This document shows, in pieces, positions 1 through 16,552 of a stretch of 16,830 bases of DNA. The stretch comes from Promethearchaeota archaeon. Lineage in GTDB: Archaea; Asgardarchaeota; Lokiarchaeia; Sigyniarchaeales; SOKP01. The notes under the pieces are model-generated. The model was not told the origin of the DNA and made no database searches. It saw nothing but the letters and a program-made list of their open reading frames with translations. Position numbers and translations under genes: made by a program. The stretch is from NCBI GenBank assembly GCA_048941265.1, contig JBHLNT010000084.1:1-16830 (forward strand), read 5' to 3'. Positions within the stretch are counted from its first letter, which is position 1. Every line of letters starts with the position of its first letter.

Positions 1-261
1 GATTTCATTCCTAATTCTTATATTTTCATAGTTTTGGATTCTTGGAAGAAAGTCTACGGGAATTTTTGTGCCTTGGATTATTTCCCCTTCAATAGTATGA
101 AATTCTACATTAATATCTTTACAAATATTCGTCGTTATAGTAACTAAATCAAGGCTAGAAATTTCTTCAGTTTCAAGAGGTCTTTCTAATAATCCCTGCC
201 CTTTTGATGGGGCTCCTATTTTAGGAATTACTCTGCTGGAAGAATTGTAATCATCCTCCAT
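1..261 (-). CDS. Hypothetical protein, partial (runs off left edge); not in ORF track
   Basis: ATG at 261, open for 87 codons to the edge (MEDDYNSSRVIPKIGAPSKGQGLLERPLETEEISSLDLVTITTNICKD...). AGAGGG lies just upstream, and the start overlaps the upstream gene's end by 11 nt, consistent with translational coupling. Confidence 0.7.
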   Translation of the reverse strand, partial: MEDDYNSSSRVIPKIGAPSKGQGLLERPLETEEISSLDLVTITTNICKDINVEFHTIEGEIIQGTKIPVDFLPRIQNYENIRIRNEI

Positions 262-1102
262 TTATATCCCTCTTATATAATTTCTCTAATTTCATATTTT
301 CTTCTTGAGTTAAGGGATAATTCTCGTTAAGTTTCTCGTTCTTATCTCTTACATCAGTTATAAATGAGACACCTAGTTTATTGTAAAAATCATGGAATAT
401 GCCATGACTGGGCCAACCATGTAATCCATCAAAGGATGTTTGAGGGTTTAATTTTTCGAGTTGTGTTTTATGCCATATTGAGAATTTGTAATAAAGAAAT
501 GCATTAAACAATGATTCCCGATGTTCATATGATTTAAATTTTTGGTAATAACAAAAAATGTGAATTTCCAAATCTCCCAATAATTCATAATAAATAAATA
601 AATTCTTGTGATCTACAAGATGAGTAATTATGACTTTTATATTTTTTTGAGCATTATAAATGTTATTTACAATCAGATTGATTCCTAACTTATTAAAAAT
701 TTTCGAACTTTGAAACTCATTAAAATTCGAGGAATATTCATTATCAGAGAAGTAAATACTTTCTAAATCTGCGACATTAAGATAATGTCTATAATCTATC
801 TTTTCTGTGCCAAACTTGGCTTTAAGCATTCTTAAACAACTTTCATAAAAAAAGATTTCATTACAAAGATATTTAAAATAGTTATCAGTTTGATCTTTTT
901 CGGACCAAATCTCCAAGGATCGGTATTTATCCTTTGCTTGTTTACATGTATCTTTAAGCTTCCATTTGATCTCATAAATTTCATTTACATCTGTTGCTTT
1001 CTTTAGCTGATTTTTTAATTCATCTATATTCTTTTCTATCTCTCTAATGTGTTCAATAGTTTCATCGATTTTATCTTGAAAGATTATTTCATCGTCAAAT
1101 AT
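251..1102 (-). CDS. Hypothetical protein (221 aa from TTG 916; possibly ~283 aa with a helical N-terminal extension)
   Basis: The track ORF 251..916 starts at TTG, but the frame stays open to 1108 (IFDDEIIFQDKIDETIEHIREIEKNIDELKNQLKK...). AGGTGA at 1114..1109 is 6 nt upstream of an in-frame ATA at 1102. No family motif recognised; start uncertain. Confidence 0.65.
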   Translation of the reverse strand: MFDDEIIFQDKIDETIEHIREIEKNIDELKNQLKKATDVNEIYEIKWKLKDTCKQAKDKYRSLEIWSEKDQTDNYFKYLCNEIFFYESCLRMLKAKFGTEKIDYRHYLNVADLESIYFSDNEYSSNFNEFQSSKIFNKLGINLIVNNIYNAQKNIKVIITHLVDHKNLFIYYELLGDLEIHIFCYYQKFKSYEHRESLFNAFLYYKFSIWHKTQLEKLNPQTSFDGLHGWPSHGIFHDFYNKLGVSFITDVRDKNEKLNENYPLTQEENMKLEKLYKRDINGG

Positions 1103-1108
1103 AGTCAG

Positions 1109-1114
1109 TCACCT
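1109..1114 (-). promoter_or_regulatory. Putative Shine-Dalgarno AGGTGA
   Basis: Matches the GGAGGTGA consensus and sits exactly where the downstream open frame begins. Confidence 0.45.
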
Positions 1115-1236
1115 ATTGTTTATGGAAGTAGAGTTCTTTTTTTACATTTTGTTAATTAACTAATTCTTGATTCTTTTTATATAATCGACAAAATCCTGTT
1201 AAGATCATTCTTTTCTTGATATTGTCATACAATTTT

Positions 1237-2247
1237 CTATTTATATTTTAAACGCTCAACTTTTTGAAAAGGTCGAAACCAATCCCAGAGCTCTTCAAAT
1301 GACAAATTCTGGGGTATAGGGTTGTTATAAATGAATTTATTATCTTTATATTGATTATGATATGCTTCACCTGTTCGACGAGGATGATTAGCAATCCAGG
1401 ATTCAAAAAAATTATTGTGAATTTCATAATGATGAGAATGAATGAATGGCTCCCAAAGTTTAGATTTGCGAAGTTCTTCCTCTGATTCAATATTAATAAT
1501 TTCAATTTGTTCCATATTTCTATTCCTTACTTCTCCCCAAGCAATTTTCATTAATTCGATCGCTCTCGTATCTGATTTAGGAGCACTATATCCAAAGAAT
1601 GTTATCCAAAATGCTGATCTTATATAATTTTGTAAAGTTATCCATTGTGATTTTAAAAAACCGTTAATATCGTAATTTTTTTCTGTAATTGGATATAAAA
1701 TTGGTGTTTTTTCTAAAGGCTTTCCGCAAGTATTGCACGGAAATCGTTTTAAACCGCTTTGATTATGTGCTTCGCAATATCCGGCTCCTACATTTCCATG
1801 TAAAAAAAGCATATTCGGTAATTCAAATCTATTTCCATTTCTCCTGTAAGCTTGAATTATGAGAGGATCCCAATTAAAAGTTGCTACGAGATCTTTCTTT
1901 CGAAGTGAAAGTAATAAAAGATCGTATATAGTTATGGATTCTGGTATTAATATTTCATTAAAGTAATTATAAACTTGGTTTTCGACTTTTTCTCTAATTT
2001 TCTTATATTTTTTTCTTCGATATAGTATTGAATACAACACCTCAAAATCACTGTTAATTTTTAGACCTAAATCTGCTAAGTACTCAAGTTTGATAACCGC
2101 AATCAAATCTTTCATCAAAGGCAACACTTTTCCATTTCTATCTCCATTTGGGCAAGTGGCTCGACTTGCTCCAGCTCCTAATATGACTACGTGTGGACGA
2201 TTCATAACTATTTGATTAATCTCTTCTTCAATGGAAAATTCGCTCAT
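1237..2247 (-). CDS. SIR2-family (SIR2_2-like) protein, putative NADase effector
   Basis: Motifs VVILGAGAS, TFNWD, LHGN and FFGYS in sirtuin order; a CEAH...CNTC zinc-ribbon-like segment follows the LHG histidine. Confidence 0.8.
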   Translation of the reverse strand: MSEFSIEEEINQIVMNRPHVVILGAGASRATCPNGDRNGKVLPLMKDLIAVIKLEYLADLGLKINSDFEVLYSILYRRKKYKKIREKVENQVYNYFNEILIPESITIYDLLLLSLRKKDLVATFNWDPLIIQAYRRNGNRFELPNMLFLHGNVGAGYCEAHNQSGLKRFPCNTCGKPLEKTPILYPITEKNYDINGFLKSQWITLQNYIRSAFWITFFGYSAPKSDTRAIELMKIAWGEVRNRNMEQIEIINIESEEELRKSKLWEPFIHSHHYEIHNNFFESWIANHPRRTGEAYHNQYKDNKFIYNNPIPQNLSFEELWDWFRPFQKVERLKYK

Positions 2248-2261
2248 CTTAATATAGTTTT

Positions 2262-2279
2262 ATTTGAATTTATTCAAAT
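2262..2279. repeat. Perfect 8-bp inverted repeat ATTTGAAT-TT-ATTCAAAT upstream of the SIR2 gene
   Basis: Read directly; lies 14 nt before the SIR2 ATG in the 58-nt intergenic gap. Function unknown. Confidence 0.5.
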
Positions 2280-2305
2280 CATTAATAGATTTCTCAGGAA
2301 ATATT

Positions 2306-3223
2306 TTATTTTGATGCTATAAAATCATAAGATTGTTTAATCAAATTCATTGAATATGGTATCATTTCAATAGAATCACATTTAAATTTACTAATTTTAC
2401 CCCATTGATATGATTCTGGAATATCTTCTAGAACGTCTCTAGGATCATCAAAGTACTCCTTCAATCTATTTAAATAAACATCAATTCGTTTATTATATAT
2501 AAATAAAGAAACAAAATTATTTCCATTTATTTTAAAAGCAATATATAATTTTACTGGTTTAAATTCAACATTTTCATTTATGTTTAATATTTCTTCTTTA
2601 AGATTTTCATATAGATCTCTTATATAAGAAGGTCTCTTTGCTATGTGATATTCCTCATCATAAGCTTGTACTTCTTTTTCAATATGTTTTTCTTTACTAA
2701 TTACAGGTGGTATTTGCTCCATGCTTACACTATATTTAGGCTCAACTTTAGATAAGATCAATATATCATCATCAAACTTCGAGATCTCCCATAATTCAAA
2801 TGGCATTTTGGTTGCTACAGCTTCTTTCGAATATTCCAGAAATCTATTCGCAATAAAAATAATTTTAGATTGACTCCAATCAAAGTCTTTGATTAGTTTA
2901 TTATCTCCTTTAACTTCATTATATTTTAAAACGAAATTCGCCTGATATTCAAATAACAATCCTAGATATGCGTAACCTTGATCAACAATACTTTTACTTT
3001 TATCTCGCTTATATTCAATTATAATAAAAGATTTAGTTTCTGAATCATATGCTAAGGTATCAATCCGTCGATTTTTAACAGAAAATTCAGTTTCTATAAA
3101 TTCTAAGTTAAAAATATTATTTAAATTATCTTCGATTATTTTTTGTATATCTTTTTCAAGCCTTATTTTTTTCTCATTTAACCTAACCAATTTGTCCTGT
3201 GATTCAATTTTATACACTTTCAT
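2306..3223 (-). CDS. NucS/DUF91-like PD-(D/E)xK endonuclease with C-terminal DUF5655-like domain
   Basis: N-terminal LEKDIQ...RIDTLAYD...IIIEYKR...IVDQGYAYL (E, D, ExK and QxxxY). C-terminal YDEEYH...LYENLKEEIL...PVKLYIAFK...WG resembles DUF5655. Confidence 0.78.
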   Translation of the reverse strand: MKVYKIESQDKLVRLNEKKIRLEKDIQKIIEDNLNNIFNLEFIETEFSVKNRRIDTLAYDSETKSFIIIEYKRDKSKSIVDQGYAYLGLLFEYQANFVLKYNEVKGDNKLIKDFDWSQSKIIFIANRFLEYSKEAVATKMPFELWEISKFDDDILILSKVEPKYSVSMEQIPPVISKEKHIEKEVQAYDEEYHIAKRPSYIRDLYENLKEEILNINENVEFKPVKLYIAFKINGNNFVSLFIYNKRIDVYLNRLKEYFDDPRDVLEDIPESYQWGKISKFKCDSIEMIPYSMNLIKQSYDFIASK

Positions 3224-3233
3224 GATTTTCTCA

Positions 3234-6200
3234 TCAAGAAATATAATTCTTAAATTCTTCTAGTCGTTTTTCAATCAAATTGTCCAAAACTTGTTGTCCC
3301 GCCGCTATTCCCGTGTGAAAATCCATTTCATAAATTCCAAATCCTTTTCGACGTAATTTTTTGCGTTTTTTCTCATCATCCTCTTTAACTTCAGGTTTAT
3401 TGTGAGGCGGGCCATCTACAAATACGCATAAATTTTTATCTTGATAATAATAATCTGCCACCGATAAAATAAAGCCTGTACCTGTAGATGGATCAATGTC
3501 ACTAATAGGATATTGAGCATGATGAGGTAATGGAATTTTCATTTTGAGCATATGTTCTAATACTCTTTTCTCTAGGAATGAATCTAGACCAGATCCAAGT
3601 AAATTTTTGAGCCTTTCTAATTGAGCTTCAACTGGATCAATAGATATAAATTCTACTTTTGATTTATGCATTGCTTGGATTAAGGATTTAACAACTTGAC
3701 GATTCAAATATCTATGATCTCTTTGGTTCCAATAACCAAGTAGACAATTGTAACATGCTCGTTTACAAGGATCCTCATACTCTTCTCCAGACTCAACATC
3801 CTTTAAGTGGATCAGCTCTGCCATCATATTCAGAAAACGATTGTACCTTATAGGGTTATTAATCAGAGCTTTTAACGTACCAATACCTCCTTCTTCGGTT
3901 TCATAAATTACTATTTTGCTTTCGTTTGACTCTGGAACTGGAAGGATAATTCCCCCTAATTCTCGTTCATCCATATTAAATGTTAACAAAATGCTTTGTA
4001 ACAAAACTTCTTTTAAGGTTGTATAGAACTCATTGATAGCTCCCTCACCCTCTACTACAACATCTTCAGGACAAATAAAATGCATTTTTATTACATCATG
4101 AGAACCTTTAACAAATAACATTAGATCTTTTAGAATATCTGATTCAATTCCATTATTGGTACAAGTTTGAGATGTACCTTGTGTTATATGATTTTCAATA
4201 CTCTTCGTTGTTATCCATTGATTGCATGCAATACAATAATTGAATGTCTCAGATTTTTGGTCAGTATCAGGAGTAAAACTAATTTGACCTCTATTCACAT
4301 AATAAATTAATGCATCCTGCTCATATGTACACTCAGCAAATGCACTTCCTTCCTGAGAAATAATATTGAAATGTCTTATTTTTTCTGCTTTTTCTTTATA
4401 ATTAACTATAACATCATAATACTTGATTAATCGTTTTTCTTCTTCACATCCAATATATTCTCCTGAAGATGCTCTCATATCGGGGAAAGAAATGCATCTA
4501 TGGATTTCTTTGCTAGGGATAATTGGTGCTCCACATGAAGGACAATTTTGTTGAGTATCAACACTTGAACCAAACTCTATGTACATACAATTATCACAGA
4601 GGAAACATTTATCTGCTGCAATTTCTTGCTCTTGATTGTGGAAATTAGCTCTTCTGACATAATATTTTGATCCCATAAAGTATATAGAATTTAAAGGAGC
4701 AAACTCTCGTATTGCAATATCATTTTCTCTTTGGATAATGCGTTCGTTAGAACTTGAGCTGTTGTACATTTGTATCGAAATGTCACTGGAAGAAAATCCA
4801 TAATTTGGCAAGAAACCATGGTCAGATAGATAATTAAAAATATAAAATTCACCATCTCCATCTAGCATTTTAGTTATTTGATTATCTACAGCTCTTTGAC
4901 GGTTTATTATGACCCTATCTCTAGAACCATGAGCTTCTTTGAATAATTTCTGTCTTTCTATCTCATATTCCCTTAGTAATTGCTTAAAATAGTAAAAATT
5001 CTGATCAAATCGATTGACAAAATTTTTAACTTTTGGAATGTAGAATTCTTCTGTTAACCATTCAAATTCTTCTGTTTTTAGATTCAATTCCCTTGAAAAA
5101 ACTTTTTTAACTGCAGAAAGAATTTCATCTTGATGAATATCAACTGCTCGTTCTATTTCGTCTGAATAATCTTCTTTTAGTTTAATCTCAAAATCCTCAT
5201 CTTTTTCTTTAATTTCGAAAATTTCTTTAGGTTGTTTATCAAGATCAGAATATTGAGTTACTATTTGAATTATAATTGAATTTATATGTTTTAAAACCAA
5301 GATTTTATTATTTAATTCAAATTGAGGGGGTACAATTCGTCCAGAAATTATTTTTTCAGGGTTATTATAGAAATATCTATCATGAGGCCCTCTATTTGTA
5401 TCCATCCCGGAGGAACAAAACACTAATATGAAGGAGGGTTGCTCGGATCGCCCTGCTCGCCCTGCCCTTTGCGCATAACGACTAGCATCTGGGGGAACAT
5501 TTCTCAGTAATACTGTTGATAAATCTCCAATATCTATTCCAAGTTCCATAGTTGGAGATGAAACTAAAACATTTAATACTCCTGCATTAAATTGATTTTC
5601 AATATCTGTTCGATCATCGACACTTAAAGTTGCATTATGTTCACTTGGTCTGATGGTAGATTCCAAGGAAATCTTTGAGTTGAATAGTTTGTAATAATAA
5701 TCATTACTCCAATCAATATCTTCTAAATCCCCACATAAAGGTCGAATACAACGATCTATAGTTTTAAAGCGGTAAACCCTTTGGCATTTATAGCAATATT
5801 TTACTTTAGGATCTATTCCATAATGCATTTCAATCTTATTTGGATTTACTTGAATAATATTCCGATATCTATGGTATTGTCCTAAAGTATGCTCAACTAA
5901 AAATCCATTATCAATTAAAATATCCTTAATTAATAACAATAGTTCTGATGCAAATTTTGAATCAACACCAGGAATAAAACTACGTAACCATTTATTTAGT
6001 GAAGAATAAGGAGTGCTAAACTTTCTCGTTCTAACTCTTTCTCCTTGAAATTTCTTGGAATGCGTAAATGTATCGTCAGAATACCCATAAATAAAGTTTA
6101 GAAATCTTCCAGGATCTTGCATGAAATAATCTTCAATAAAATCAGACCAATCCCCCCATTTATTTCTAGTACTATTAAGAAAATCATGCTTTATTGCACC

Positions 6201-8636
6201 CCACCATCTTATATCATCAAGTATCCCCCTTATTAAATCATATCGTTCTTCTGATGTAAGAGCTTTTACCTGAGGAATATCATTCCAGAATCTCTCGTTA
6301 TTGACGATATCTTTTAAACCTGTATACTTAACTTGCATTAGGCTATATTTTTCTACTCCAGTGTGTAAGATGTATCCTGAAGATTTTAATTCTGAAAGAG
6401 CCAAAAATTCAAGATATTCTTTGAAATATTGTTCACTACGTCTTTCATTTTTTCCCTCTTTCCATGGTAATTTAAATTTCTCTTCATTACTTTCTCTTAA
6501 TTGTCTAATTTTTTGATATATATCCCTCCCACACTCATCAGGTATTAAATAATCCCTATTTTTATGAGCATCCTTTAGGGTTTCAACCATAATATGTTGA
6601 AATGTTATTCTGCGGTCAAAATCTCTAAGATGACCCGCTTGAAACGCTGTTTCTTGACGATTATCTGAAAAAATTAAGATTCTTTTCTTATTCTCTTCTA
6701 AAACTTTTAATGCATTAGATACTAATATATCGGTTGCTGTACTTCGACCAACAAGGTCAAAAGAATAAAATTTCTTAAATCTCTGAGTTTTTTTCGTATG
6801 GACTGCACCACATGAAGGACAAAATTCAAAATTTTCGGAAACACGCCATACTGGAAACTGATCTGCGTGTGAACAGTCAGGATCAAATATATTACAAATA
6901 GGACAATAAATATCTTTAATTGGAACTTTATTTCTATATTTCTTACTTATATCTACACCATTTTTCAAATACCAATTTTCAGGAATCGGTAAATCTGATA
7001 GGTCATTTCCTAACTGTGAACTTTTGCCGAGTAAGATCTTATTTCCAGTAACAAATGGATTATAATATTCTGGTGAAAGCTGACCTTCTTCGGTTTGCTT
7101 AACTCCAAAAAATTCTGTACCGCATTGTTTACAAAAAACTAATGGAAATGCATAATAGGTCTGTTCTCCCATTGAACACATCTCACATACTTTATCTCCA
7201 CGAATTTGTAGATGAATCTTTTCTGAATCATTAGAGGTAAGACATCCATAAATAACGGCTCCTTGAGTGAAAAAAAGGTGTATTTTTGGTACCAAGATTG
7301 GTCTGAATTTACCCTCAAATTCAGCCTGAACAAATGTTCCGACTAACAGAGCTGCTTTGATTTCGAGCTTACACTCCCCTAACACATATTCAGAACGAAA
7401 TTCCTTCTGATACATTTCAGCTAATACTTTCATAGTCTGAGGACCATGTTCTTGAATGGTTCTCTTGATGAAGCGAATAGTGGGATGTTTTAACAATAAT
7501 TCCCCGAGAGTTTTTTCATTTGGATTATTGGGAATGAGATTCGGATTCTCTAATAGGCTTTTGATTAATGGTAAAGTATTTCCTAGAGTGCTATTAAAAT
7601 TATCCAGATCTATCTGTTTTATATATATTTTTTCTGGTAGATTTAAAAGTTCTATAGAGGGATCTTCTTCTATAAATTCTGCTTGAATAAGGAAACCTTC
7701 TGAAAATTCCTCTCCAAATATATCTTCTGCGAATTGTCGGATAATTTTACCCTTCACTCCAGGTGTATCCTCAATGGTAGCACTCGTTCCGATACAAATT
7801 GGATTTTCCATTTTTAATCGTTGTTTCACCCTTCTTATTAAACCTGCTACATCAGCTCCGGAATTACCTTTATATGTGTGAATTTCATCCAATATAAGAA
7901 ACTTAAGCACATTCTTTTCATTATCACGGAAGATTTTTCTATCATAGTGGCGTGTAAGGATTAGCTCAAGCATTTTATAGTTCGTTATAAGTATATCGGG
8001 AGGTGTTTGCTGAACATCTTCTCTGGAAATTATTTCAGAATCATAGATCTTTTCTCTTTTAAGAACATTTCTAAGGTAATTATGTGCTTCTTCATGTGTT
8101 TGCTTCATTTCTCCAGTATATTTCGCGACAGTAATTCCTGTACCGTGTAATCTTTCGGCAATATCATTATATTGAGAATTGGCAAGAGCATTCATTGGAT
8201 ATATAACGAGTGCTTTTACTCCTTTTAGCTCATTTTCTTTAGATTCTAGACAATAAGATACAATAGGGATCCAAAAACACATTGATTTTCCTGATCCAGT
8301 ACCTGTGCTAACAATAATATTCTTATTCTCATGAGTTCTACGGATCGCTTCATCTTGATGAGAATAGGGTTGGATTGGTCCTGATTTCTCTCTATTTTGA
8401 AATAAGATTGGGATTTCTTGTGGTAAAATATTTTCTTGTACGAGTCGCTCTAAAGTAGAACCTTTTTTATATTGTGGGATAAGGTCAATAACCGGTTTTT
8501 GGTATATGAACGTGCCCGATTCTATTTGATCATTTATCCATTCTTTAATGACAGGATTTTGGAATTTTTGATATGAACGGATAAATGATTTATATTGCTC
8601 TTGGAGTTCCTTAATTTGTAAAAATATATTTTTCAT
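3234..8636 (-). CDS. YprA/DruE-like DEAD/DEAH-box helicase with DUF1998 and C-terminal Vsr/DUF559-like nuclease
   Basis: Helicase motifs: Q motif PYSHQ, Walker A TGTGSGKS, YPMNALANSQ, DEIH, TSAT, IFSDNRQ, PTMELGIDIG, QRAGRAGR. Many CxxC pairs; DUF1998-type YETEEGGIG...CKRACYNC; terminal ADYYY...VFVDGPPH. Confidence 0.9.
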   Translation of the reverse strand: MKNIFLQIKELQEQYKSFIRSYQKFQNPVIKEWINDQIESGTFIYQKPVIDLIPQYKKGSTLERLVQENILPQEIPILFQNREKSGPIQPYSHQDEAIRRTHENKNIIVSTGTGSGKSMCFWIPIVSYCLESKENELKGVKALVIYPMNALANSQYNDIAERLHGTGITVAKYTGEMKQTHEEAHNYLRNVLKREKIYDSEIISREDVQQTPPDILITNYKMLELILTRHYDRKIFRDNEKNVLKFLILDEIHTYKGNSGADVAGLIRRVKQRLKMENPICIGTSATIEDTPGVKGKIIRQFAEDIFGEEFSEGFLIQAEFIEEDPSIELLNLPEKIYIKQIDLDNFNSTLGNTLPLIKSLLENPNLIPNNPNEKTLGELLLKHPTIRFIKRTIQEHGPQTMKVLAEMYQKEFRSEYVLGECKLEIKAALLVGTFVQAEFEGKFRPILVPKIHLFFTQGAVIYGCLTSNDSEKIHLQIRGDKVCEMCSMGEQTYYAFPLVFCKQCGTEFFGVKQTEEGQLSPEYYNPFVTGNKILLGKSSQLGNDLSDLPIPENWYLKNGVDISKKYRNKVPIKDIYCPICNIFDPDCSHADQFPVWRVSENFEFCPSCGAVHTKKTQRFKKFYSFDLVGRSTATDILVSNALKVLEENKKRILIFSDNRQETAFQAGHLRDFDRRITFQHIMVETLKDAHKNRDYLIPDECGRDIYQKIRQLRESNEEKFKLPWKEGKNERRSEQYFKEYLEFLALSELKSSGYILHTGVEKYSLMQVKYTGLKDIVNNERFWNDIPQVKALTSEERYDLIRGILDDIRWWGAIKHDFLNSTRNKWGDWSDFIEDYFMQDPGRFLNFIYGYSDDTFTHSKKFQGERVRTRKFSTPYSSLNKWLRSFIPGVDSKFASELLLLIKDILIDNGFLVEHTLGQYHRYRNIIQVNPNKIEMHYGIDPKVKYCYKCQRVYRFKTIDRCIRPLCGDLEDIDWSNDYYYKLFNSKISLESTIRPSEHNATLSVDDRTDIENQFNAGVLNVLVSSPTMELGIDIGDLSTVLLRNVPPDASRYAQRAGRAGRSEQPSFILVFCSSGMDTNRGPHDRYFYNNPEKIISGRIVPPQFELNNKILVLKHINSIIIQIVTQYSDLDKQPKEIFEIKEKDEDFEIKLKEDYSDEIERAVDIHQDEILSAVKKVFSRELNLKTEEFEWLTEEFYIPKVKNFVNRFDQNFYYFKQLLREYEIERQKLFKEAHGSRDRVIINRQRAVDNQITKMLDGDGEFYIFNYLSDHGFLPNYGFSSSDISIQMYNSSSSNERIIQRENDIAIREFAPLNSIYFMGSKYYVRRANFHNQEQEIAADKCFLCDNCMYIEFGSSVDTQQNCPSCGAPIIPSKEIHRCISFPDMRASSGEYIGCEEEKRLIKYYDVIVNYKEKAEKIRHFNIISQEGSAFAECTYEQDALIYYVNRGQISFTPDTDQKSETFNYCIACNQWITTKSIENHITQGTSQTCTNNGIESDILKDLMLFVKGSHDVIKMHFICPEDVVVEGEGAINEFYTTLKEVLLQSILLTFNMDERELGGIILPVPESNESKIVIYETEEGGIGTLKALINNPIRYNRFLNMMAELIHLKDVESGEEYEDPCKRACYNCLLGYWNQRDHRYLNRQVVKSLIQAMHKSKVEFISIDPVEAQLERLKNLLGSGLDSFLEKRVLEHMLKMKIPLPHHAQYPISDIDPSTGTGFILSVADYYYQDKNLCVFVDGPPHNKPEVKEDDEKKRKKLRRKGFGIYEMDFHTGIAAGQQVLDNLIEKRLEEFKNYIS

Positions 8637-8639
8637 TTT

Positions 8640-11600
8640 CTATACACCTTTTAATTTGTCTAAATCTACACCCTCAAGGCGAAATAATGGTCCGAGTTCT
8701 GGATCTGAATTAAATTTATTATAGGCTTTTAAAACAAGTCTTTTTGTTTTAAATTCTCCATATTCCCTTAATTCAATATCTCTGAGGACATAAAAATTAT
8801 CAATAATATATTCAAAATCTGTATATGTAAAACCATACATTAATCCAAAAATTGCATCTAATTCCGCTTTCAATAATTCTCTCCTCTCCAAATCGTATTT
8901 AAAAGGTTCTTTTTCAATGGAACATTTAAAATCTATAGAAAAATTTTTCATTTCATAAGTACAATAAATAAGTTCAATAGCTCTAATATAAATCTCATTG
9001 AATAATAATTTGTTATACACTTTTGGGGGAAATACAGGTAACTGCTCAACCATAAATTGAGTTATAGCTACACCCGATGTTTTATTTCTAACAATAAAAT
9101 CAAAAGGTAAGGATGATAAATTAGCGATTAAACAGATTATTTGAAGAGAAAAGCTATTAAAATATATATTTTGTATACTATCAATACTTGGAACTTTAGG
9201 AATAACAGATATTACAAATGTTCGTTGATTGGTAGAATTTGATACTTTTCGATAACCTATATACCATTCTTTTTTCCATTCAGGTGGAAATTTCTTTTCT
9301 GCATCAATTTTCTTAACCCAATACATAGGCTTATGAGAGAAGTAAGGATCTTTCTTTTTAACATTTGGAACACGTATTATATCAGCTTTAAGCTTTTTTG
9401 ATTTCATTAATTTTGGAACTAATTCATTGAATCTATAATCATATATCCAGATCGCAGCTCCAGTATATAGGGGATAATAAATCTCTTTTTTTTCTAGGCT
9501 ATCAATAAAATATACACTCTTCATTAATTTTTTATCAAATACTCTTTTCCCATTGCTTTTTATTAGTTCTTTTTCTGTTTTAAAGAGCTTGGAATCATCA
9601 GATGGATGGAAAAATCGTTTAATAATGATTCCCCAATGATTTTTTATTTCTTTTCCATCCTTATCTCTTCCAATTAGGATAGGAGCTCTGCCATAAGCTT
9701 TTTTTATAAGTGAAAAGTATTTTTTTCTCTTAAAAACTGGAGCACTTCTGGAATTTGGATTAAAATGGTGAAAATCTTCTTTCTTTAACTCCAAAATAGT
9801 CCCACCCTCTCTAATACTTCTAACAAATTCATCTTCATTTATCTTATTTTCATAATTTTCAAGAGTAATCAAAAATTTATCGATTTCCCATATAAAAAAA
9901 GCCATTAATATTAGGTCATCTCTGGTTCTCTGATTATTTATTGTTAATAAACAGAATTCTAAGTTATGAGCAACATCTGGAAAAATTTTTCTTTCATTTA
10001 CAAAACTAAATATACTATCAATTGAATTACTTTCAATTAGGTCACTAAATAAATTATTTAAAGTTTTACCAGTTAAAATTGTGGATAATGCTATACAGCC
10101 AATTTTACCTTGAGAATTGATTAAAGATTTTGCTCTCTCAATGAATAAAGGATAGAGATTCAGAGTTCCACTTGCAGATAGACTGTAAAATCCACTTTTC
10201 TTAAAAAAATTTAGCTGTTTTTTTATTTTATAATATTCCTTGATATATTCAGAATGTAATTCAGGATTTGTTTCTTTTAATTTCTTTATTTGCAATTGTC
10301 GTTTTGCTTGATTCTGTGTGTTTGTTACCTCATGACTCTTTCCAGAAAAAAATTCCATTTCTTTAAGGGCTAAGACATCCCAGGGTGGATTCATTAAAAT
10401 ACAATCAAAACCAGGATTTTCTTTTTGAAATACTTCAGGAAATTCTAGATACCAATTGAAGAATTGATACACTTTACTTAATTTTTCAACTTCTAATATT
10501 ATTTTCTCAGAATTCTTTAAATTTCCTCGTTTAATCCTAAAAATTAAAGTATCAGTAGGTATTTCTTTTATATAATTCTCACCAAAATTCCAAAAAAATG
10601 AGCTTGTCCATAAATTAGCTTGAATATTAAGATTTTTCCATGAATTTGATTTATGCAATTCCGAATAACATTTAATCTTTTCCTTCAAATCTTTCAAATT
10701 ATCTTCTGTCATAGAAAATAGCTCTGTAGCTATTTTTGAATAATTTTCGGAATCTTTATAGGGAATTAGAGTTTTTTGAACAGAAGCTAACCCAGAATTA
10801 GCTTCGGAAATTGATAGTTTTTTAAAATGTTTTATTGCTTCATCTACAAATTTTTTATTTTCATCTGGAATTCCCGTTTTAGGATTACCTTTAACGATAT
10901 TAAATGCGTCGAAAGGAATTTTTCCAATTTTTTGCTTTTTTGCTAATCCTAAAAGAGAATTTCCTTCTTTTAGATGATTATTTAAAAGTGTTAAAGGTTT
11001 CTTACCTACAGTTGCTTTTAACCATAAAGAAACTTTAGCTAATTCTAATGCCATAGGATTTAAATCTACTCCATAAATGCAATGCTGAAGAATGACTCTT
11101 CGGGACTCTCTTAATACTTGATCATCAGGAAATTCTTGTTCAGACTGTATTTGTGCATAAATTTTTCCCAAATAGTCCAACGAAGCTAATAAAAATGATC
11201 CACCTCCACATGCAGGATCACATATCTTTAGGTCTAATATAGCATCTAATTTTTCTCCTTTAGTATTTAATCCCTTTAATTTATCTTCAATTACGGGTTT
11301 TAAAGTTGTTTTAAGTAAGATGTCAATTAATCCCTTGGGAGTATAGTAGGTACCGGTTCCTTTACGCTCGGTATCAATTTCTTCCAAAACAAAATTATAT
11401 ATATGAGATTCTTTCTTGATATATCTAGGTTGAAAATCTAAAAGTGCCTCATAAATACTTCCAATTTCTTCCTCTCCTATTTGGGTATAATCAATTGATT
11501 GTAATCCAATACCTAAGTCTACAATTGTAAGTTCTCGAATAATTTTTAATATATAACTATTATTTAGGGATAAATTATAATTCTCATTTAAAACCAAAGG

Positions 11601-13013
11601 AATTTTTTCAGGATTAAAGAGCTCACCACTAAAAGCATTAATTCCCAAAGAAGATTCTCCAATATTAAGATACTTAAATAATAATAATAAACGATACCAA
11701 AGATCAGTATTTTGGTCATCCCGAATGGCTCGCTGTGCTTTTTTACGAAGATAAGTTAGCCCTAGATCATTATAATAAATCGTAGCTACACCGGGAAGTA
11801 AATCTTTAGCCTCTGCATATAAAATAAAAATAATTCTGTAAGTGATTCGTAATAATTCCTGATAAAAATCTCTAATCTCAATTTTACCTTTTAAAATATC
11901 CTCGGTGAAAGATTTGCTTGAATTAATTAAGCCCTCCCCCATTAATTTTAAAGCCTTTTTAACATTTTCTCTTAACTTTTTGCCAGCTTCAATTCCTTCT
12001 TCTTGACTCTTTTTTTGGAGTCTCTGTATTATACTTAAATTTTCATTAATATCTGATATGATAGAATTTAATTCTTTTAAATAAAAGTCGCGACCTATTT
12101 CTCCTAAATCTAAACTATGTTCATTGATATTTTTCATAAATGTCTCAGAATCAGATGAATTTATAGCCATAACTCCATTTTTATCTGCCTTCTCAATGAA
12201 ATCAATCAGAACTTTCTTACACACACCTAAAATATCTTTAGAAATCAAATTAATCTCAATTTTAGCACCATCTTTACTTAATTTTTCTGAAGTTTTCTCC
12301 CATTTTTTCTCAAGCTTTTCAATCCATCCATCTGGGTTTAAGCCAAAAGTTTCAATAAATCTTGAATAATGAATCAACGCATAAAATACCCAGAACTCAC
12401 TTTCATCCCTATTGATAAATATTGAATCTAAATTAAATTGCACATATCCTTTCGCATAGATATTAGAGTATTCTCCAAGAAGTCTTATATATTTTCCATT
12501 ACTTAAAAGACCCCATCGTACTCCTTCATTTAAAAGGATATAACGTTGAAAATGGTCGTGTTGCGATTTTTTTTGGTAATTTTTTTCATTTCTTTCGTCA
12601 AAATTATCATCTTCACAAATATGGAGTCCAATCTTAGCATGATTTTTAAATTGATGAGAAATCTGAATTTTATTTAAAATGTTATCTTGTTCCTCTTCAG
12701 AAAGATCACTCAGATCAATTTCTTCTTTTGTTTTACTTTCATGTCCTATTTTTTGAAGAAGAGGTTTAATCCATTTTTCATATCGATCCTTAATAGGCCA
12801 AGACTCCAATTTGTCCGCTATCTCTCCAAAAAGACGCTTAGCCCAATCCCAAACTTCATAATATTGCTTTTTTTCTTCTTGCCATTTTTCTCCAAAAGTG
12901 TTCCACTGAACTTCTGAAATTTGATCTTTTTTATCACGGATTTTTAAAAGAAGATTTTCTGTAAATAATCCTCCACTTACGTGGATATTCCGTAATGGTG
13001 TCAAATTTGCCAT
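8640..13013 (-). CDS. Large N6-adenine DNA methyltransferase (Eco57I/type IIG-like, DrmMI-like)
   Basis: GSIYEALL, GTYYTP, motif I DPACGGGSFL, YGVDLNP and motif IV NPPW; a C-terminal TRD-like region; N-terminal WGLLSNG restriction-domain-like segment. Confidence 0.92.
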   Translation of the reverse strand: MANLTPLRNIHVSGGLFTENLLLKIRDKKDQISEVQWNTFGEKWQEEKKQYYEVWDWAKRLFGEIADKLESWPIKDRYEKWIKPLLQKIGHESKTKEEIDLSDLSEEEQDNILNKIQISHQFKNHAKIGLHICEDDNFDERNEKNYQKKSQHDHFQRYILLNEGVRWGLLSNGKYIRLLGEYSNIYAKGYVQFNLDSIFINRDESEFWVFYALIHYSRFIETFGLNPDGWIEKLEKKWEKTSEKLSKDGAKIEINLISKDILGVCKKVLIDFIEKADKNGVMAINSSDSETFMKNINEHSLDLGEIGRDFYLKELNSIISDINENLSIIQRLQKKSQEEGIEAGKKLRENVKKALKLMGEGLINSSKSFTEDILKGKIEIRDFYQELLRITYRIIFILYAEAKDLLPGVATIYYNDLGLTYLRKKAQRAIRDDQNTDLWYRLLLLFKYLNIGESSLGINAFSGELFNPEKIPLVLNENYNLSLNNSYILKIIRELTIVDLGIGLQSIDYTQIGEEEIGSIYEALLDFQPRYIKKESHIYNFVLEEIDTERKGTGTYYTPKGLIDILLKTTLKPVIEDKLKGLNTKGEKLDAILDLKICDPACGGGSFLLASLDYLGKIYAQIQSEQEFPDDQVLRESRRVILQHCIYGVDLNPMALELAKVSLWLKATVGKKPLTLLNNHLKEGNSLLGLAKKQKIGKIPFDAFNIVKGNPKTGIPDENKKFVDEAIKHFKKLSISEANSGLASVQKTLIPYKDSENYSKIATELFSMTEDNLKDLKEKIKCYSELHKSNSWKNLNIQANLWTSSFFWNFGENYIKEIPTDTLIFRIKRGNLKNSEKIILEVEKLSKVYQFFNWYLEFPEVFQKENPGFDCILMNPPWDVLALKEMEFFSGKSHEVTNTQNQAKRQLQIKKLKETNPELHSEYIKEYYKIKKQLNFFKKSGFYSLSASGTLNLYPLFIERAKSLINSQGKIGCIALSTILTGKTLNNLFSDLIESNSIDSIFSFVNERKIFPDVAHNLEFCLLTINNQRTRDDLILMAFFIWEIDKFLITLENYENKINEDEFVRSIREGGTILELKKEDFHHFNPNSRSAPVFKRKKYFSLIKKAYGRAPILIGRDKDGKEIKNHWGIIIKRFFHPSDDSKLFKTEKELIKSNGKRVFDKKLMKSVYFIDSLEKKEIYYPLYTGAAIWIYDYRFNELVPKLMKSKKLKADIIRVPNVKKKDPYFSHKPMYWVKKIDAEKKFPPEWKKEWYIGYRKVSNSTNQRTFVISVIPKVPSIDSIQNIYFNSFSLQIICLIANLSSLPFDFIVRNKTSGVAITQFMVEQLPVFPPKVYNKLLFNEIYIRAIELIYCTYEMKNFSIDFKCSIEKEPFKYDLERRELLKAELDAIFGLMYGFTYTDFEYIIDNFYVLRDIELREYGEFKTKRLVLKAYNKFNSDPELGPLFRLEGVDLDKLKGV

Positions 13014-13017
13014 ATTA

Positions 13018-16000
13018 TCATCTCGGTGGATAAAATGTTGTTATACTTATGGGATCATAAGAAATTATTTCAATATCATCCATTCCTCTTAATTCTTCGA
13101 TTGCAGCTAAATTTTTCTTCTCTAATTTTTTCATTAAACCTTTAGCATTGTTTTTAACTATTACTAATCGATCATTTACAGCTTTTTCAATTATCTTTTC
13201 AAAATCTGGGCGAGTAAATAAGTCATTCATATCATTCTGGACGGTTTTATCAAGACCAGGATAATTTGAGGTTTGCCCGCTAATAAATTTATTCCAAAGG
13301 GTTTTAGTAGTTTTCTGCTCGACTAAAGGATTACCTCCATTATCTATTGACTCATCAAAAATTTTGATTCCAATTGGATGAAGTTCTTCCATCATTGAAG
13401 TTTCTCTTGTTTTTACTAAATAGCGTATTTTATAATAGATAATTGCAGACACTTCATTGATTAGACTGGTAGAAGCAGCAGCAGTTCTCCCATAAAAATC
13501 CTTATCCTCGGAAATAAATCCTTGTTCCTTTACTAAATTAATGACACCATAAATAACAGGTGATTTTAGACTCAATGTTTCTATCTCGGTATTTTTAGCT
13601 CCAAAAATTGGATCAATAGTAATGTAGTATTCCTCTTTGCTTTTTTCACTGGTAATTATTAATTCTTGGATCTCTTTGGATAAAATAATTTTATATACTT
13701 TATCAGGAGGGTATCCTTTTGCATTAACAACCTCAATTGATGAATTAAAGAATGGTAGAGCTTTCTGGAGAAAACCAAGGAGAATCATAATATCTCCTAT
13801 GGATTCTTGCATCTCTTTCATTCTTTCTTGGACATCGCTAAAATCAACTGTTGTTTGACCATAAAATGAATCTTCACTGAGAATATGTTCAAAATTTGGA
13901 TTTATATGAGCCTTTAGCAATTTTTTCATTTCACTCTCAGAATCTTGACCTATAAAATAATCAAGGCTTATATATTCCACTTCAGGTTCTCTTTTACCAA
14001 ATCTAATAGTGTTTGTCTTCTTAAAATAATCATCAACAACATCACCGATTAAATCTAAATTACCAAAATATTTAGGTTCATAACCCACGTCTGCTCCAAT
14101 ACTCTGAATTTTTTTGTATAATAAATCAAGGATTGCAATTTCAAGGGATTCTTTCATGATTAAAGTGCGTATGTATACATCTTTTTTAGGTTGACCAAAT
14201 CTGTCCACTCTACCGTTTCTTTGCTCAAGACGATTTGGATTCCAAGTAAGCTCATAATTTACCACAATATTGGAAGAGTACTGAAGGTCAATTCCTTCAC
14301 TCATGCAATCTGTAGAGACCATAATTCCTTTATTTAAAGCGAGAAATTTATCGTATTTTTCAGCTCTAATATGAATTGCATCTGTACCTACAATTTCCAC
14401 AATTTCAAATCCTTTCAGTAAAGATTTTTCATTTGCTAATTTTTTCAACTCATCAGCTAAATAATCTGCAGTGTCTATGTATCTTGTAAATATAATTATT
14501 TTATTTCCTACTTCAATTAAGTCTTGAAGTACATTATTATAAAAGTGATTAAGTTTCACATCATTAGAATAACCAATTAAATTTTTAGCAGAATTTTCAA
14601 TTTCAAGCAATTTATTAACAATTTTAGGAGATAACTTTTTACGTCCAGGTTCAGTATCATTGTTTCTATCTATCTCATGCTCTTCATAAGAGTCATCATT
14701 ACTAATATCAGTGACATTTTGACGAGTTCTTTCTAATTGTTCTTGAATTTCTTCTTCAGGTAATTTATTAACATCTTGTATTTCCGTTTCACTTGACGTA
14801 TCATCCTTTAATTTATTTTGAATAGTTTTAATTAATGAATATGGGCAACTTATATATCTCCGATACATATGAAGAATTGCCCAGTATTTAATATAACGGA
14901 CTCCTTTTTTATCAACTTTAGCAGTCTCAAAAATCATTGCAGCGTACTCGTCAATCTTTGATATAATCTCCTTAAACTCTGGAATGGGGGGAATAAAGAC
15001 TTCTTTTCGATGCACATTTGGGAATAATATTTTCATTTCACTCTCACCCATCCAGGCTTTAACATCTTCCTTCTTTCTCTGACATATAAAACGAGTTGCT
15101 AAAGCTTTATCAATCTTATAGGAATTTCTTTCATCTACTAAACTAGGATTAAGTAAATGTATTAAACTTGCAAAACTCTCATGATACCCATTGTGAGGTG
15201 TTGCGGTTAATAAAAGGATATGGGGATATTTATCAGCAACCCTTTCAGCCATTCCATAAAGTCGTTTGCTTTTTTTTTGTCCTTTTGGTTGCATCATATA
15301 GCGTGGTTTTGCTACATTATGAGCTTCATCAATAACTACCATATCAAAATTAAACTGTGTAGCACGCTCAAGCATTTCTTGTCTGCTTAAATAATCCTGA
15401 GAAACAATTAGGAAATTGAAATATCCCCAAGGATCACCACCAACAAGTAATTCTTTTTGCAAATTTCCAAGAGATCTATTAGAAATTATCCGTACGTCTA
15501 ATCCAAAGAATCTTTGCATTATTAATTGCCATTGCTCACGCAAACTTGCTGGAACGACGTATAGAACACGGTTTATCTTCCTCCGTCCTAGTAATTCTTG
15601 AATAATTAACCCTGCTTCGATTGTTTTACCTAATCCAACATCATCGGCTATGAGCAACCTAACTTTTTCTTGAGCCATTGCCATTAAAACAGGTACCATT
15701 TGATATGACACAGGAATTACACGACTATTTGCTAAACTAATAAAGCTTGAAGTCCCGAATATTAAATCAAATCGCATAGCTTGAATTAGAATTTTCTGAA
15801 AATCAGGATTTCCAAGTTTATTAACATCTGGTCGTGGAATTTTGGCGAGTTTAATTTCTTCCAGTTTTTTTATTTCCTTCTTGCCATCAGTCATTTTTAT
15901 ACTACTATGGAGTAGACAACATCTATTAGGAACTCCATCTATTGTTGAGACTTCTAAAAGGTTAATTTCCGAATATTTATCAAATTCAGATTTTTGATTT

Positions 16001-16104
16001 ATTATTCGTTCAATTCTCCAAAATCTATTACGTGCTTTAACAACTTGTCCAATCTTGAACTCTGGTATAGGTTTTTTAGTATTTATAAAAGAATCTAACG
16101 TCAT
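13018..16104 (-). CDS. SNF2-family helicase (DrmD-like)
   Basis: LLIADDVGLGKTIEAG, DEAH, LLTATPHNG, STDCMSEGIDLQ, WNPNRLEQRNGRVDRFGQ; N-terminal GQVVKARNRFW Tudor/SH3-like segment as in RapA/DrmD-type proteins. Confidence 0.92.
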   Translation of the reverse strand: MTLDSFINTKKPIPEFKIGQVVKARNRFWRIERIINQKSEFDKYSEINLLEVSTIDGVPNRCCLLHSSIKMTDGKKEIKKLEEIKLAKIPRPDVNKLGNPDFQKILIQAMRFDLIFGTSSFISLANSRVIPVSYQMVPVLMAMAQEKVRLLIADDVGLGKTIEAGLIIQELLGRRKINRVLYVVPASLREQWQLIMQRFFGLDVRIISNRSLGNLQKELLVGGDPWGYFNFLIVSQDYLSRQEMLERATQFNFDMVVIDEAHNVAKPRYMMQPKGQKKSKRLYGMAERVADKYPHILLLTATPHNGYHESFASLIHLLNPSLVDERNSYKIDKALATRFICQRKKEDVKAWMGESEMKILFPNVHRKEVFIPPIPEFKEIISKIDEYAAMIFETAKVDKKGVRYIKYWAILHMYRRYISCPYSLIKTIQNKLKDDTSSETEIQDVNKLPEEEIQEQLERTRQNVTDISNDDSYEEHEIDRNNDTEPGRKKLSPKIVNKLLEIENSAKNLIGYSNDVKLNHFYNNVLQDLIEVGNKIIIFTRYIDTADYLADELKKLANEKSLLKGFEIVEIVGTDAIHIRAEKYDKFLALNKGIMVSTDCMSEGIDLQYSSNIVVNYELTWNPNRLEQRNGRVDRFGQPKKDVYIRTLIMKESLEIAILDLLYKKIQSIGADVGYEPKYFGNLDLIGDVVDDYFKKTNTIRFGKREPEVEYISLDYFIGQDSESEMKKLLKAHINPNFEHILSEDSFYGQTTVDFSDVQERMKEMQESIGDIMILLGFLQKALPFFNSSIEVVNAKGYPPDKVYKIILSKEIQELIITSEKSKEEYYITIDPIFGAKNTEIETLSLKSPVIYGVINLVKEQGFISEDKDFYGRTAAASTSLINEVSAIIYYKIRYLVKTRETSMMEELHPIGIKIFDESIDNGGNPLVEQKTTKTLWNKFISGQTSNYPGLDKTVQNDMNDLFTRPDFEKIIEKAVNDRLVIVKNNAKGLMKKLEKKNLAAIEELRGMDDIEIISYDPISITTFYPPR

Positions 16105-16552
16105 GGTTATTTGTCTAATGGTGAAGGTTGATTAAAATTATTATTTATTAAACATTTAACAGAACAAATTTTTCTATAAGATCTTTTTATTTATTGCTTT
16201 TATTATAAATCATTCATTTCAATTTCAATTTAGAGTGTGCTATAGGATTCTCAAATCTTACTATGAAAAAATTAATATTATTTTATTTATATTTTTTTGT
16301 CAAAATAATGATTATTAGCAATCTTAAATTTGATTACTTTTTAAGCTGAGAGGTATGATTTTTCCCCATAGAAAACTAAAAAATCGTGAAATAACCGTCA
16401 AATTTTGTTAAATTCAAATCTATATTAATTAGATAATTATGAAAGAATAAATAGATTATATTTAACATATGAGATTATATTAATGTAAAATTTAGTAAAT
16501 TTTCTTTTATAAAAAAAAATTAAATGAAAATAGAAAATATTTACTCTCGAGG
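16105..16552. promoter_or_regulatory. AT-rich divergent intergenic/promoter region
   Basis: Separates head-to-head genes. Contains TATA-like TTTTATAA (16505..16512), direct repeat AGATTATATT (16453, 16472) and inverted repeat AAAATTTA-G-TAAATTTT (16487..16503). Individual elements unproven. Confidence 0.45.

Follow-up and report, generated by a model that had tools for sequence, protein, structure and literature searches.

A type I ARMADA core followed by candidate defence modules, probably independent of it, on a contig of a Promethearchaeota archaeon

We have analyzed a 16,830-bp stretch of DNA (the window) from a Promethearchaeota archaeon, which is the entire contig JBHLNT010000084.1 of assembly GCA_048941265.1 and belongs to a genome bin of 5.0 Mb in 361 contigs with about 30% G+C. 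The bin encodes ribosomal protein L31e, matched in a control set by the four archaea alone, which marks the genome as archaeal; an SSU rRNA gene was not found in the assembly. The window carries seven genes, of which the first three fit the type I form of the defence system ARMADA. The explanation that we favor, with a probability of roughly 0.72, is that this known core is followed by independent add-on modules, i.e., that the window is a small defence island of four evolutionarily autonomous modules and not one layered system. The genes are the following:

Gene 1: 13018..16104, minus strand; 1028 amino acids (aa), SNF2/RapA/BrxHII-like helicase (ArmA-like)
Gene 2: 8640..13013, minus strand; 1457 aa, PglX/DrmMI-like N6-adenine DNA methyltransferase (ArmB-like)
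Gene 3: 3234..8636, minus strand; 1800 aa, ARMADA/Druantia-type YprA-family helicase with a DUF559/Vsr-like C-terminus (ArmC-like)
Gene 4: 2306..3223, minus strand; 305 aa, PDC-S18-type protein with an N-terminal PD-(D/E)xK-like domain and a C-terminal DUF5655 domain
Gene 5: 1237..2247, minus strand; 336 aa, solitary SIR2-fold protein, matched by none of the four libraries scanned
Gene 6: 251..916 from a TTG codon (221 aa) or 251..1108 from a CTG codon (285 aa), minus strand; all-helical protein, family unnamed
Gene 7: 1..261, minus strand; a GIY-YIG nuclease gene of which the first 87 codons are present, open at the contig end

A preliminary description of this DNA, made without database searches, had reported seven co-oriented genes separated at first by very short gaps, with the last two overlapping, and the open reading frame (ORF) list confirmed this arrangement. 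The seven ORFs given by the ORF caller are all on the minus strand and span positions 1-16104. The gaps between genes 1/2, 2/3, 3/4, and 4/5 are 4, 3, 10, and 58 nucleotides (nt), respectively, and genes 6 and 7 overlap by 11 nt. For genes 5 and 6, the ORF caller gives a gap of 320 nt, which may really be 128 nt, given that the gene 6 frame is open to position 1108.

In the parts of Bell et al. (2025; bioRxiv 10.1101/2025.09.15.676423) that define and test the system, ARMADA combines a helicase resembling BrxHII/RapA with a PglX-like methylase and with a YprA helicase that carries a Vsr nuclease at its C-terminus. According to the same parts, type I is found in a variety of archaea, and many archaea and cyanobacteria have the helicase and methylase genes, as a pair, ahead of the YprA gene (Bell et al., 2025). 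Genes 1 to 3 encode these same three components in the same order, and gene 3 shares with ARMADA type I its closeness to DruE, the abundance of CxxC zinc motifs, and a putative DUF559/Vsr-like tail. The form tested experimentally, as described there, is type II (ArmA-D) from E. coli, whose protection is direct and non-abortive and requires all four genes plus the NPPW and Walker motifs (Bell et al., 2025). The window encodes ArmA-, ArmB-, and ArmC-like proteins that keep the NPPW and Walker motifs essential in type II, but ArmD, in which a RelE-like RNase and a GajB/UvrD-like helicase are fused, is absent: no UvrD/GajB or RelE match was found with Pfam or PADLOC for any window protein.

The domain, hidden Markov model (HMM), and motif results support the preliminary identification of the first three genes as a helicase-methylase-YprA defence core. 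The product of gene 1 matches the Pfam families SNF2-rel_dom (2.9e-15) and Helicase_C (3.2e-16), the PADLOC models DrmD (3.8e-100) and BrxHII (2.6e-74), and, in NCBIfam, DISARM_DrmD (NF038317) with 353.3 bits, under the cut-off of 610, as well as RapA (2.2e-47). Its GLGKT, DEAH, and QRNGRVDR motifs start at residues 157, 259, and 628. Gene 2 encodes a protein with Eco57I (3.1e-19) and N6_Mtase (2.1e-10) Pfam matches that fits the PADLOC models DrmMI (7e-80) and PglX (4.7e-12) and, under its cut-off, the NCBIfam model of BREX-1 PglX (2.9e-18); it carries DPACGGGSF at 599 (GxG at 603) and NPPW at 875. In gene 3, the Pfam domains DEAD (1e-25), Helicase_C (1.8e-15), and MZB/DUF1998 (1.4e-6) all lie in one chain, together with GSGKS at 114, DEIH at 250, and nine CxxC motifs. 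PADLOC gave DruE at 4.2e-119 (397 bits) versus DrmA at 1.4e-16 (58 bits) for this protein, values that are HMM scores and not the outcome of a tree, and comparison with PDB retrieved YprA (6znp, E 7.3e-24) and two large helicases, 9tu7 (E 2e-47) and 9wae (E 2.6e-26), whose entry titles name no system. The Walker A/B motifs, helicase motif VI, the S-adenosylmethionine motif, and NPPW are all intact in the core proteins.

The preliminary description spoke of DISARM-type systems, a term that could not be sustained for this core in the strict sense: the core was filed as ARMADA type I because a split DrmA/DrmB, a PLD gene, and ArmD are all absent from the window. The likeness to class-1 DISARM extends to a homologous SNF2 helicase and adenine methylase, the methylation-based logic of self-marking, and a YprA-family helicase, such helicases being common to DISARM and ARMADA in the account of Bell et al. 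(2025). Moreover, the top PADLOC names are DrmD for gene 1 and DrmMI for gene 2, and the top NCBIfam name for gene 1 is DISARM_DrmD. That the core might be a degenerate or fused class-1 DISARM, comprising DrmD, DrmMI, and a fused DrmA-DrmB with DrmC lost, is nevertheless very improbable. DISARM has separate DrmA and DrmB proteins, whereas in the window the helicase and the DUF1998 module form a single 1800-aa chain that scores far better with DruE than with DrmA; gene 1 remains under the DrmD equivalog cut-off; the DrmB model was not seen for gene 3 among the 25 of its 37 PADLOC matches that were listed; and neither a PLD domain nor the DrmC model was found by Pfam and PADLOC in any of the seven window proteins. 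For comparison, a true class-1 DISARM operon (locus L013) scores 867, 249, and 161 bits with DrmA, DrmB, and DrmC, respectively, and the published definition, as given in those parts, assigns a parts list like that of the window to ARMADA (Bell et al., 2025).

Druantia type III resembles the window in that DruE is the best HMM match of gene 3, but the window has no DruH, the partners of gene 3 are an SNF2 helicase and a methylase, and DruE is described in the pertinent part of Bell et al. (2025) as carrying PLD-type nuclease domains and not Vsr. Other candidates for the core were discarded: Hma, with HmaA matching gene 1 at E 3e-64, yet with its ATPase partner absent; BREX, since PglZ and BrxC are absent; and Dpd, whose DpdE and DpdJ matches are weaker than those of DrmD and DruE. 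A type IIG restriction-modification (R-M) enzyme was likewise rejected for gene 2 alone, in which no nuclease domain was found and which in its relatives is always flanked by two helicase genes.

Some observations limit the assignment to ARMADA. The DUF559 match in the tail of gene 3 is sub-threshold (E 0.028, 14.7 bits, with a cut-off of 20.6), and the same holds for two of four relatives (E 0.024 and 0.026), i.e., three of the five tails scanned when gene 3 is counted. A profile of the gene 3 tail retrieved no Vsr match from PDB, just one helicase at E 0.43. The window differs from ARMADA type I in that its Vsr tail consists of a sub-threshold match plus conserved motifs. In six aligned tails of the gene 3 type, these motifs, DS..E, AD(F/Y), F(V/I)DGP.H, and D..KR, are invariant, and we take them to agree with the DUF559/Vsr pattern. 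Taken together, genes 1 to 3 appear to fit ARMADA type I rather than DISARM by their parts list, gene order, and HMM scores. The core itself is not new, since ARMADA has been in print since 2025; the parts of Bell et al. (2025) on the definition and tests of ARMADA make no mention of SIR2, DUF5655, or Asgard archaea.

The behavior of the core and of the genes behind it was compared across the phylum, using gene 3 to search 400 genomes. Matches at E<=0.001 were obtained in 398 of them, as any SF2 helicase would give, and matches at E<=1e-100 in 12, the genome of the window being counted among these. Thirteen stretches from 12 other genomes were compared, two of which (L112 and L113) overlap. 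The order gene 1-gene 2-gene 3 is kept in five loci (L112, L114, L115, L116, and L117) with 33-63% protein identity, and gene 2-gene 3 is kept at L118, the other fetched loci being more distant or partial helicases. Genes 4 to 7, however, were not found by tblastn (E<1e-4) in any fetched stretch, and so in none of the five syntenic relatives of the core. In the nearest relative, L112/L113 (60% identity), the YprA gene is followed by a convergent gene, and none of the tail genes lies within the 14 kb of sequence downstream. Genes 1 to 3 are thus a unit, and the comparison indicates that the following genes are not inherited with it.

Other features of these relatives concern their own surroundings. 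At L114:2724-10133 and L117:2460-10258, the SNF2 and YprA genes enclose two PglX-like methylase genes in tandem. A defence-island context is visible downstream of ARMADA in L117, where HSDR_N, HNH, and SAD_SRA-HNH proteins are encoded (L117:15845-19998), and immediately upstream of the ARMADA locus in L115, with a ParE/antitoxin pair (L115:2180-2709).

Gene 4, for which a nuclease had been proposed at the outset, does have a PD-(D/E)xK-type domain. Its product fits the PADLOC model PDC-S18 (PDLC04945) end to end at E 1.5e-92 (protein residues 1-299, profile positions 1-301 of 302) and Pfam DUF5655 at 5.8e-9 (36.4 bits, with a cut-off of 24), and a D55 ... E70-x-K72 pattern can be read in its N-terminal half. 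The more specific label of NucS-like fared less well, with an NCBIfam NucS match at E 0.0022 and an HSDR_N_2 match (1.9e-4) of 21.9 bits, under the cut-off of 25, so that the DUF5655 and PDC-S18 assignments are the solid ones. In the phylum, a search with the protein detected the gene in 5 of 400 genomes, and the PDC-S18 model gave matches in 15 of 400. Among metagenome contigs, just two loci held relatives, which are too few for statistics; at the five other PDC-S18 loci available from metagenome contigs and the phylum (L125, L126, and L140-L142), an ARMADA gene adjoins in none, and at L126 the relative is adjoined by HsdR and an integrase. Relatives are also present in 26 plasmid records, of which five were inspected: in three the gene stands between hsdS and hsdR and in a fourth next to an hsdMSR operon, and the fifth is free of R-M genes. 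The three records with the DUF5655/PDC-S18 gene between hsdS and hsdR are L146, L147, and L148 (NZ_CP090384.1, NZ_CP047974.1, and NZ_CP038637.1), one of which also embeds an HNH gene and a PD-(D/E)XK gene.

The name PDC-S18 was not found in our literature search. As set out in the portions of Payne et al. (2024) that we draw on, PDC systems were defined, by "guilt-by-embedding", on the basis of genes that lie inside BREX, DISARM, and type I R-M operons, and the 145 PDC systems are, as a group, untested candidates. Gene 4 resembles those founding examples in its end-to-end fit and in being co-oriented at a restriction-type operon, but here the host is ARMADA and not BREX, DISARM, or type I R-M, and the gene is at the 3' end and not between system genes. 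We regard gene 4 as a candidate single-gene defence system habitually nested in or beside ATP-dependent restriction operons.

Gene 5 had been described as a SIR2 gene. The fold, the motifs, and the Atlas neighbors bore this out, although no match to Pfam, NCBIfam, or PADLOC models was obtained: the Pfam SIR2 and SIR2_2 families gave none at E<=10, PADLOC gave none at E<=0.01, and a sequence search of PDB returned just three chance rows at E 0.45. An AlphaFold2 (AF2) model built from 26 sequences reached a pLDDT value (predicted local distance difference test) of 89.1 and a predicted template modelling score of 0.90. Foldseek returned 322 matches at E<=0.001 for this model, and among the matches listed all were sirtuins or SIR2 proteins, the best being the SIR2 protein of SIR2/HerA (8wld, E 3.8e-8, template modelling score 0.50), followed by CobB. 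The motifs GAGAS at 24, N125-W-D127, H150-G151, C158..H161, and C171..C174 are invariant or at least 90% conserved in the 26 sequences, and GAGxS, N..D, and the catalytic His are what we take to be the NAD (nicotinamide adenine dinucleotide)-site signature. The Atlas neighbors of gene 5 belong to unnamed or sirtuin-type clusters. The SIR2 assignment, then, is drawn from a predicted fold, conserved motifs, and these neighbors.

The family is large, with 1954 proteins at E<=0.001 and at least 588 confirmed stretches in species-representative genomes. Identity is 51-65% among the full-length rows of the best 120 proteins listed and 42-62% over the 80 loci that were kept, a set drawn from archaea and many bacterial phyla. 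These 80 loci are the best of the at least 588 stretches, and all the neighborhood counts refer to them. When the window proteins were compared with them by tblastn, DrmD-like matches were found at two, methyltransferase (MTase)-like matches at seven, a single weak YprA match at one, and genes 4, 6, and 7 at none; a full YprA/DruE-type match was found in 0 of the 80. A DISARM-type gene set (DrmD-like plus MTase-like) occurs only at L013 and L033, with the DrmA/B/C models run on L013 alone, and L034 has only the MTase-like gene. The gene-5-like SIR2 gene is broken into two pieces in L033 and three pieces in L034. The commonest neighbor family occurs at 6 of 80 loci with a median distance of 5.6 kb, and across the 80 loci no gene accompanies gene 5 as a fixed partner. 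Within the phylum, gene 5 is present in 3 of 400 genomes, and the other two carry neither the ARMADA core nor genes 4, 6, or 7 nearby.

The immediate neighbors of gene 5 were scanned at 78 loci, the other two being left out because the SIR2 gene was fragmented in the ORF call. Of the 140 neighboring proteins, 57 have a Pfam match and 28 were labelled as defence or mobile-element proteins, including Mrr, TIR, PIN, HepT, AbiC, BglII, integrases, and a reverse transcriptase. The same label was given to 6 of 83 genes located 7 kb or more away in these loci (Fisher p=0.007, with labels assigned by hand and unblinded). Gene 5 resembles the SIR2 effectors of defence systems (SIR2-HerA, Thoeris ThsA, DSR1/2, and SIR2-pAgo) in its SIR2 fold and its conserved GAGxS / N..D / HG signature. 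It differs from them in being a stand-alone protein of 336 aa with its own conserved C-terminal extension, in not being matched by the PADLOC SIR2 models, and in its setting, a window with no HerA, TIR, SLOG, pAgo, or long sensor domain. It is probably a solitary, mobile defence candidate and a predicted NAD consumer; a non-immune deacylase role may also be considered, in view of its high conservation and its sirtuin-like zinc site.

Genes 6 and 7 form a pair of their own. Gene 6 has only 11 relatives. Its frame is open upstream of the TTG codon to 1108, with a CTG at 1106-1108 where the relative P0125 has ATG, and relatives of 277-293 aa align in frame to 1087-1108; the CTG is thus an unusual start codon, or else the start has been lost. 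The AF2 model of the protein (pLDDT 88.5) is all-helical with ten helices; compared with PDB it gave no match at E<=0.001, the weak rows being generic helical repeats, and PADLOC did not match the sequence. The window copy of gene 7 ends at residue 87, ahead of the GIY-YIG domain. Its orthologue at L131:10456-11103 is full length (215 aa) and 85% identical over the 87 aa of the window, and it matches Pfam GIY-YIG with 25.2 bits (cut-off of 22.6) and PADLOC PDC-S14 at 3.1e-17; its catalytic residues are conserved, with GIY, YVG, R, E, and N invariant. The full-length orthologue, therefore, fits both models, but the window gene is coupled with a helical gene that no library names and preserves only the N-terminal 87 aa.

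At L131, the pair occurs with 87% and 85% identity and the same 11-nt overlap, in the absence of SIR2, PDC-S18, and ARMADA genes. The equal sizes of the longest contigs suggest that five relatives each of gene 6 and gene 7 sit together. In more distant proteins from two genomes of the same family, a gene-6-like N-terminal domain is fused to a PRTase-CE/PADLOC PRTase_III-A domain (596 aa; L133:9509-11299) and to TPR repeats (864 aa; L132:9226-11820). One shared domain swapped among different effectors is typical of conflict systems.

Several of the results weigh against an island of autonomous modules. The tight spacing (10 and 58 nt) and the co-orientation make read-through and functional coupling plausible, to judge from the gene layout; in the portions of Payne et al. 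(2024) cited here, embedded genes are co-oriented with their host system in 96.7% of cases, and co-regulation is suggested. Type II ARMADA, in its tested form, requires a fourth gene (Bell et al., 2025). A PDC-S18-family gene is present in 3 of the 12 ARMADA-bearing genomes (G000, G032, and G139) versus 12 of the 388 others, with a one-sided Fisher p=0.008 for genomes that are related and thus not independent; the two are physically close in two of the three only, the contigs of G139 being too short. At L116 (G032:C87), a second ARMADA locus, a 660-aa SIR2_2/Aga_SIR2-like protein is encoded upstream (L116:117-2099) and a distant PDC-S18-like gene (NucS_C + DUF5655) is found 1.9 kb past the YprA gene (L116:17374-18171). 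At L114:10134-15974 (G249:C24), the YprA homologue has 1946 aa and a C-terminal Swt1-like HEPN domain (Pfam 6.6e-11), and this RNase-type HEPN_Swt1 fusion occupies the position of window gene 4; in L117, a co-oriented HSDR_N protein follows the YprA gene. These last two cases could point to a variable accessory slot. Finally, besides the gene 4 relatives nested in type I R-M operons, a gene 5 relative lies within a class-1 DISARM operon in L013 and L033. In the former, a bona fide operon of a cyanobacterium (L013:1734-18398), it stands between DrmMI and DrmA, in the order DrmD-DrmMI-[small two-gene pair, second HepT-like]-[SIR2]-293 aa-DrmA-DrmB-DrmC.

Such observations would be expected if the window encoded one integrated layered system, as the preliminary description proposed, in which gene 4 as a second nuclease and gene 5 as a SIR2 NADase were dedicated, co-transcribed accessory or back-up effectors of the ARMADA core, triggered on its inhibition, in parallel with PrrC in type I R-M and with the ArmD required in ARMADA type II. 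We consider this unlikely, given that the neighborhood comparison went mostly against it. None of the five syntenic core relatives carries genes 4 to 7, and the closest one ends its operon at the YprA gene; none of the five other PDC-S18 loci has ARMADA; the 80 SIR2-like loci show neither a full YprA gene nor a fixed partner; and genes 6 and 7 occur as a pair alone. The SIR2 protein of L116 has nothing in common with gene 5 beyond the GAGxS motif and is not orthologous to it, and the PDC-S18-like gene of that locus, 23% identical to gene 4, is on the opposite strand and beyond another gene. In addition, defence genes cluster in islands regardless, which makes proximity weak evidence. What is left of the dedicated layered system is the tight spacing, the PDC-S18 enrichment in ARMADA genomes, and locus L116, and the caveat raised at the outset, that the small genes could be independent island cargo, fits best. 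The PDC-S18 co-occurrence and L116, along with the HEPN fusion of L114 and the HSDR_N gene of L117, leave real coupling a modest chance. A version of the same idea, to which we give a similarly low probability, is that ARMADA type I in Asgard archaea has a variable 3' slot for a second effector, filled by PDC-S18 in the window, by the HEPN fusion in L114, and by HSDR_N in L117, and extended here by a stand-alone SIR2 NADase, these being co-transcribed back-up or guard effectors for when the core is blocked.

It is also rather improbable that genes 5 to 7, and perhaps gene 4, are non-immune passengers, namely, a sirtuin-type deacylase, a homing or mobile-element GIY-YIG nuclease with its helper, and a repair or R-M accessory nuclease. 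The conservation of gene 5 is unusually high, as the identities above illustrate, its Cys/His zinc knuckle is like that of true sirtuins, and CobB deacetylases match its fold about equally; 112 of its 140 immediate neighbors are not of defence or mobile-element types, PADLOC matches neither gene 5 nor gene 6, and GIY-YIG domains are common in homing endonucleases. Against this, gene 5 is sporadic in the phylum, occurs as a pseudogene in L033 and L034, and is found inside a DISARM operon, and its patches are rich in defence, mobile-element, and unannotated genes when compared with flanks 7 kb away. Furthermore, the nuclease domain of gene 7 matches the defence candidate PDC-S14, and the gene 6 domain is fused elsewhere to a PRTase-CE/PRTase_III-A effector domain.

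An island of four autonomous modules is, therefore, the explanation that we retain, and the way in which it would work can be sketched from the families involved. In the first module, the PglX-like methylase (gene 2) would mark host DNA at adenines, the SNF2/RapA-like translocase and the YprA-type helicase would act on unmarked invading DNA, and the Vsr/DUF559-like nuclease tail of gene 3, a protein that also carries zinc modules, would cut it. The outcome would be direct, non-abortive restriction, for which the experimental proof, in the parts of the preprint on its tests, concerns just ARMADA type II in E. coli (Bell et al., 2025). The second module would be gene 4, whose PD-(D/E)xK and DUF5655 domains make it a candidate single-gene defence. 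The third would be gene 5, a solitary SIR2 enzyme whose NAD-site signature is intact and which has a zinc knuckle; most likely, it consumes NAD+ as an effector and needs no partner to sense infection. The fourth would pair the helical-repeat protein of gene 6, translationally coupled to gene 7, with the GIY-YIG nuclease, probably as sensor or adaptor and DNase, respectively. These modules would have been assembled here by insertion; they share their orientation and may share transcripts.

The remainder of the contig lies upstream of gene 1:

Spacer: 16105..16552, no strand; 448 nt between gene 1 and a divergent WD40-like ORF
WD40-repeat-like ORF: 16553-16828, plus strand; divergent with respect to gene 1 and truncated at the other end of the contig, with repeats seen in the translation only

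The spacer is the likely site of the operon promoter, as far as the ORF layout indicates. A whole-window Rfam scan gave 0 matches, a tRNA gene scan gave 0 genes, and a repeat scan found just short AT-rich chance pairs and no att-like flanks. The junctions of genes 6/5/4/3 are covered, at positions 94-3819, by a Logan contig of 3726 nt from run X1 with 0 differences, and this run may be the source of the window DNA. The stretch is present in three DNA runs of one study, with no RNA run among the holders listed. The run contigs, when compared with the window, confirmed the junctions and contained no informative variant; four apparent contig joints were discounted, as their sides were only 20-21 letters.

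Neither defence islands nor the embedding of defence genes is a novelty, and a specialist would find nothing surprising in the findings made in this window. The core is a clear archaeal example of ARMADA type I with at least five syntenic relatives within the phylum, for a system that was named only in 2025 and that, in the parts of the work describing its tests, was assayed in its bacterial type II form (Bell et al., 2025). If the variable 3' slot were true, it would represent real layered immunity and a functional counterpart of the ArmD of type II. It is the tail that has practical value, through three compact candidates open to testing: a SIR2-fold family with at least 588 matches in species representatives, unmatched in Pfam, NCBIfam, and PADLOC and found once inside a DISARM operon; PDC-S18, recurrent in type I R-M operons and here following ARMADA; and a two-gene module of helical protein and GIY-YIG nuclease with few relatives, whose helical domain is also fused to a PRTase effector.

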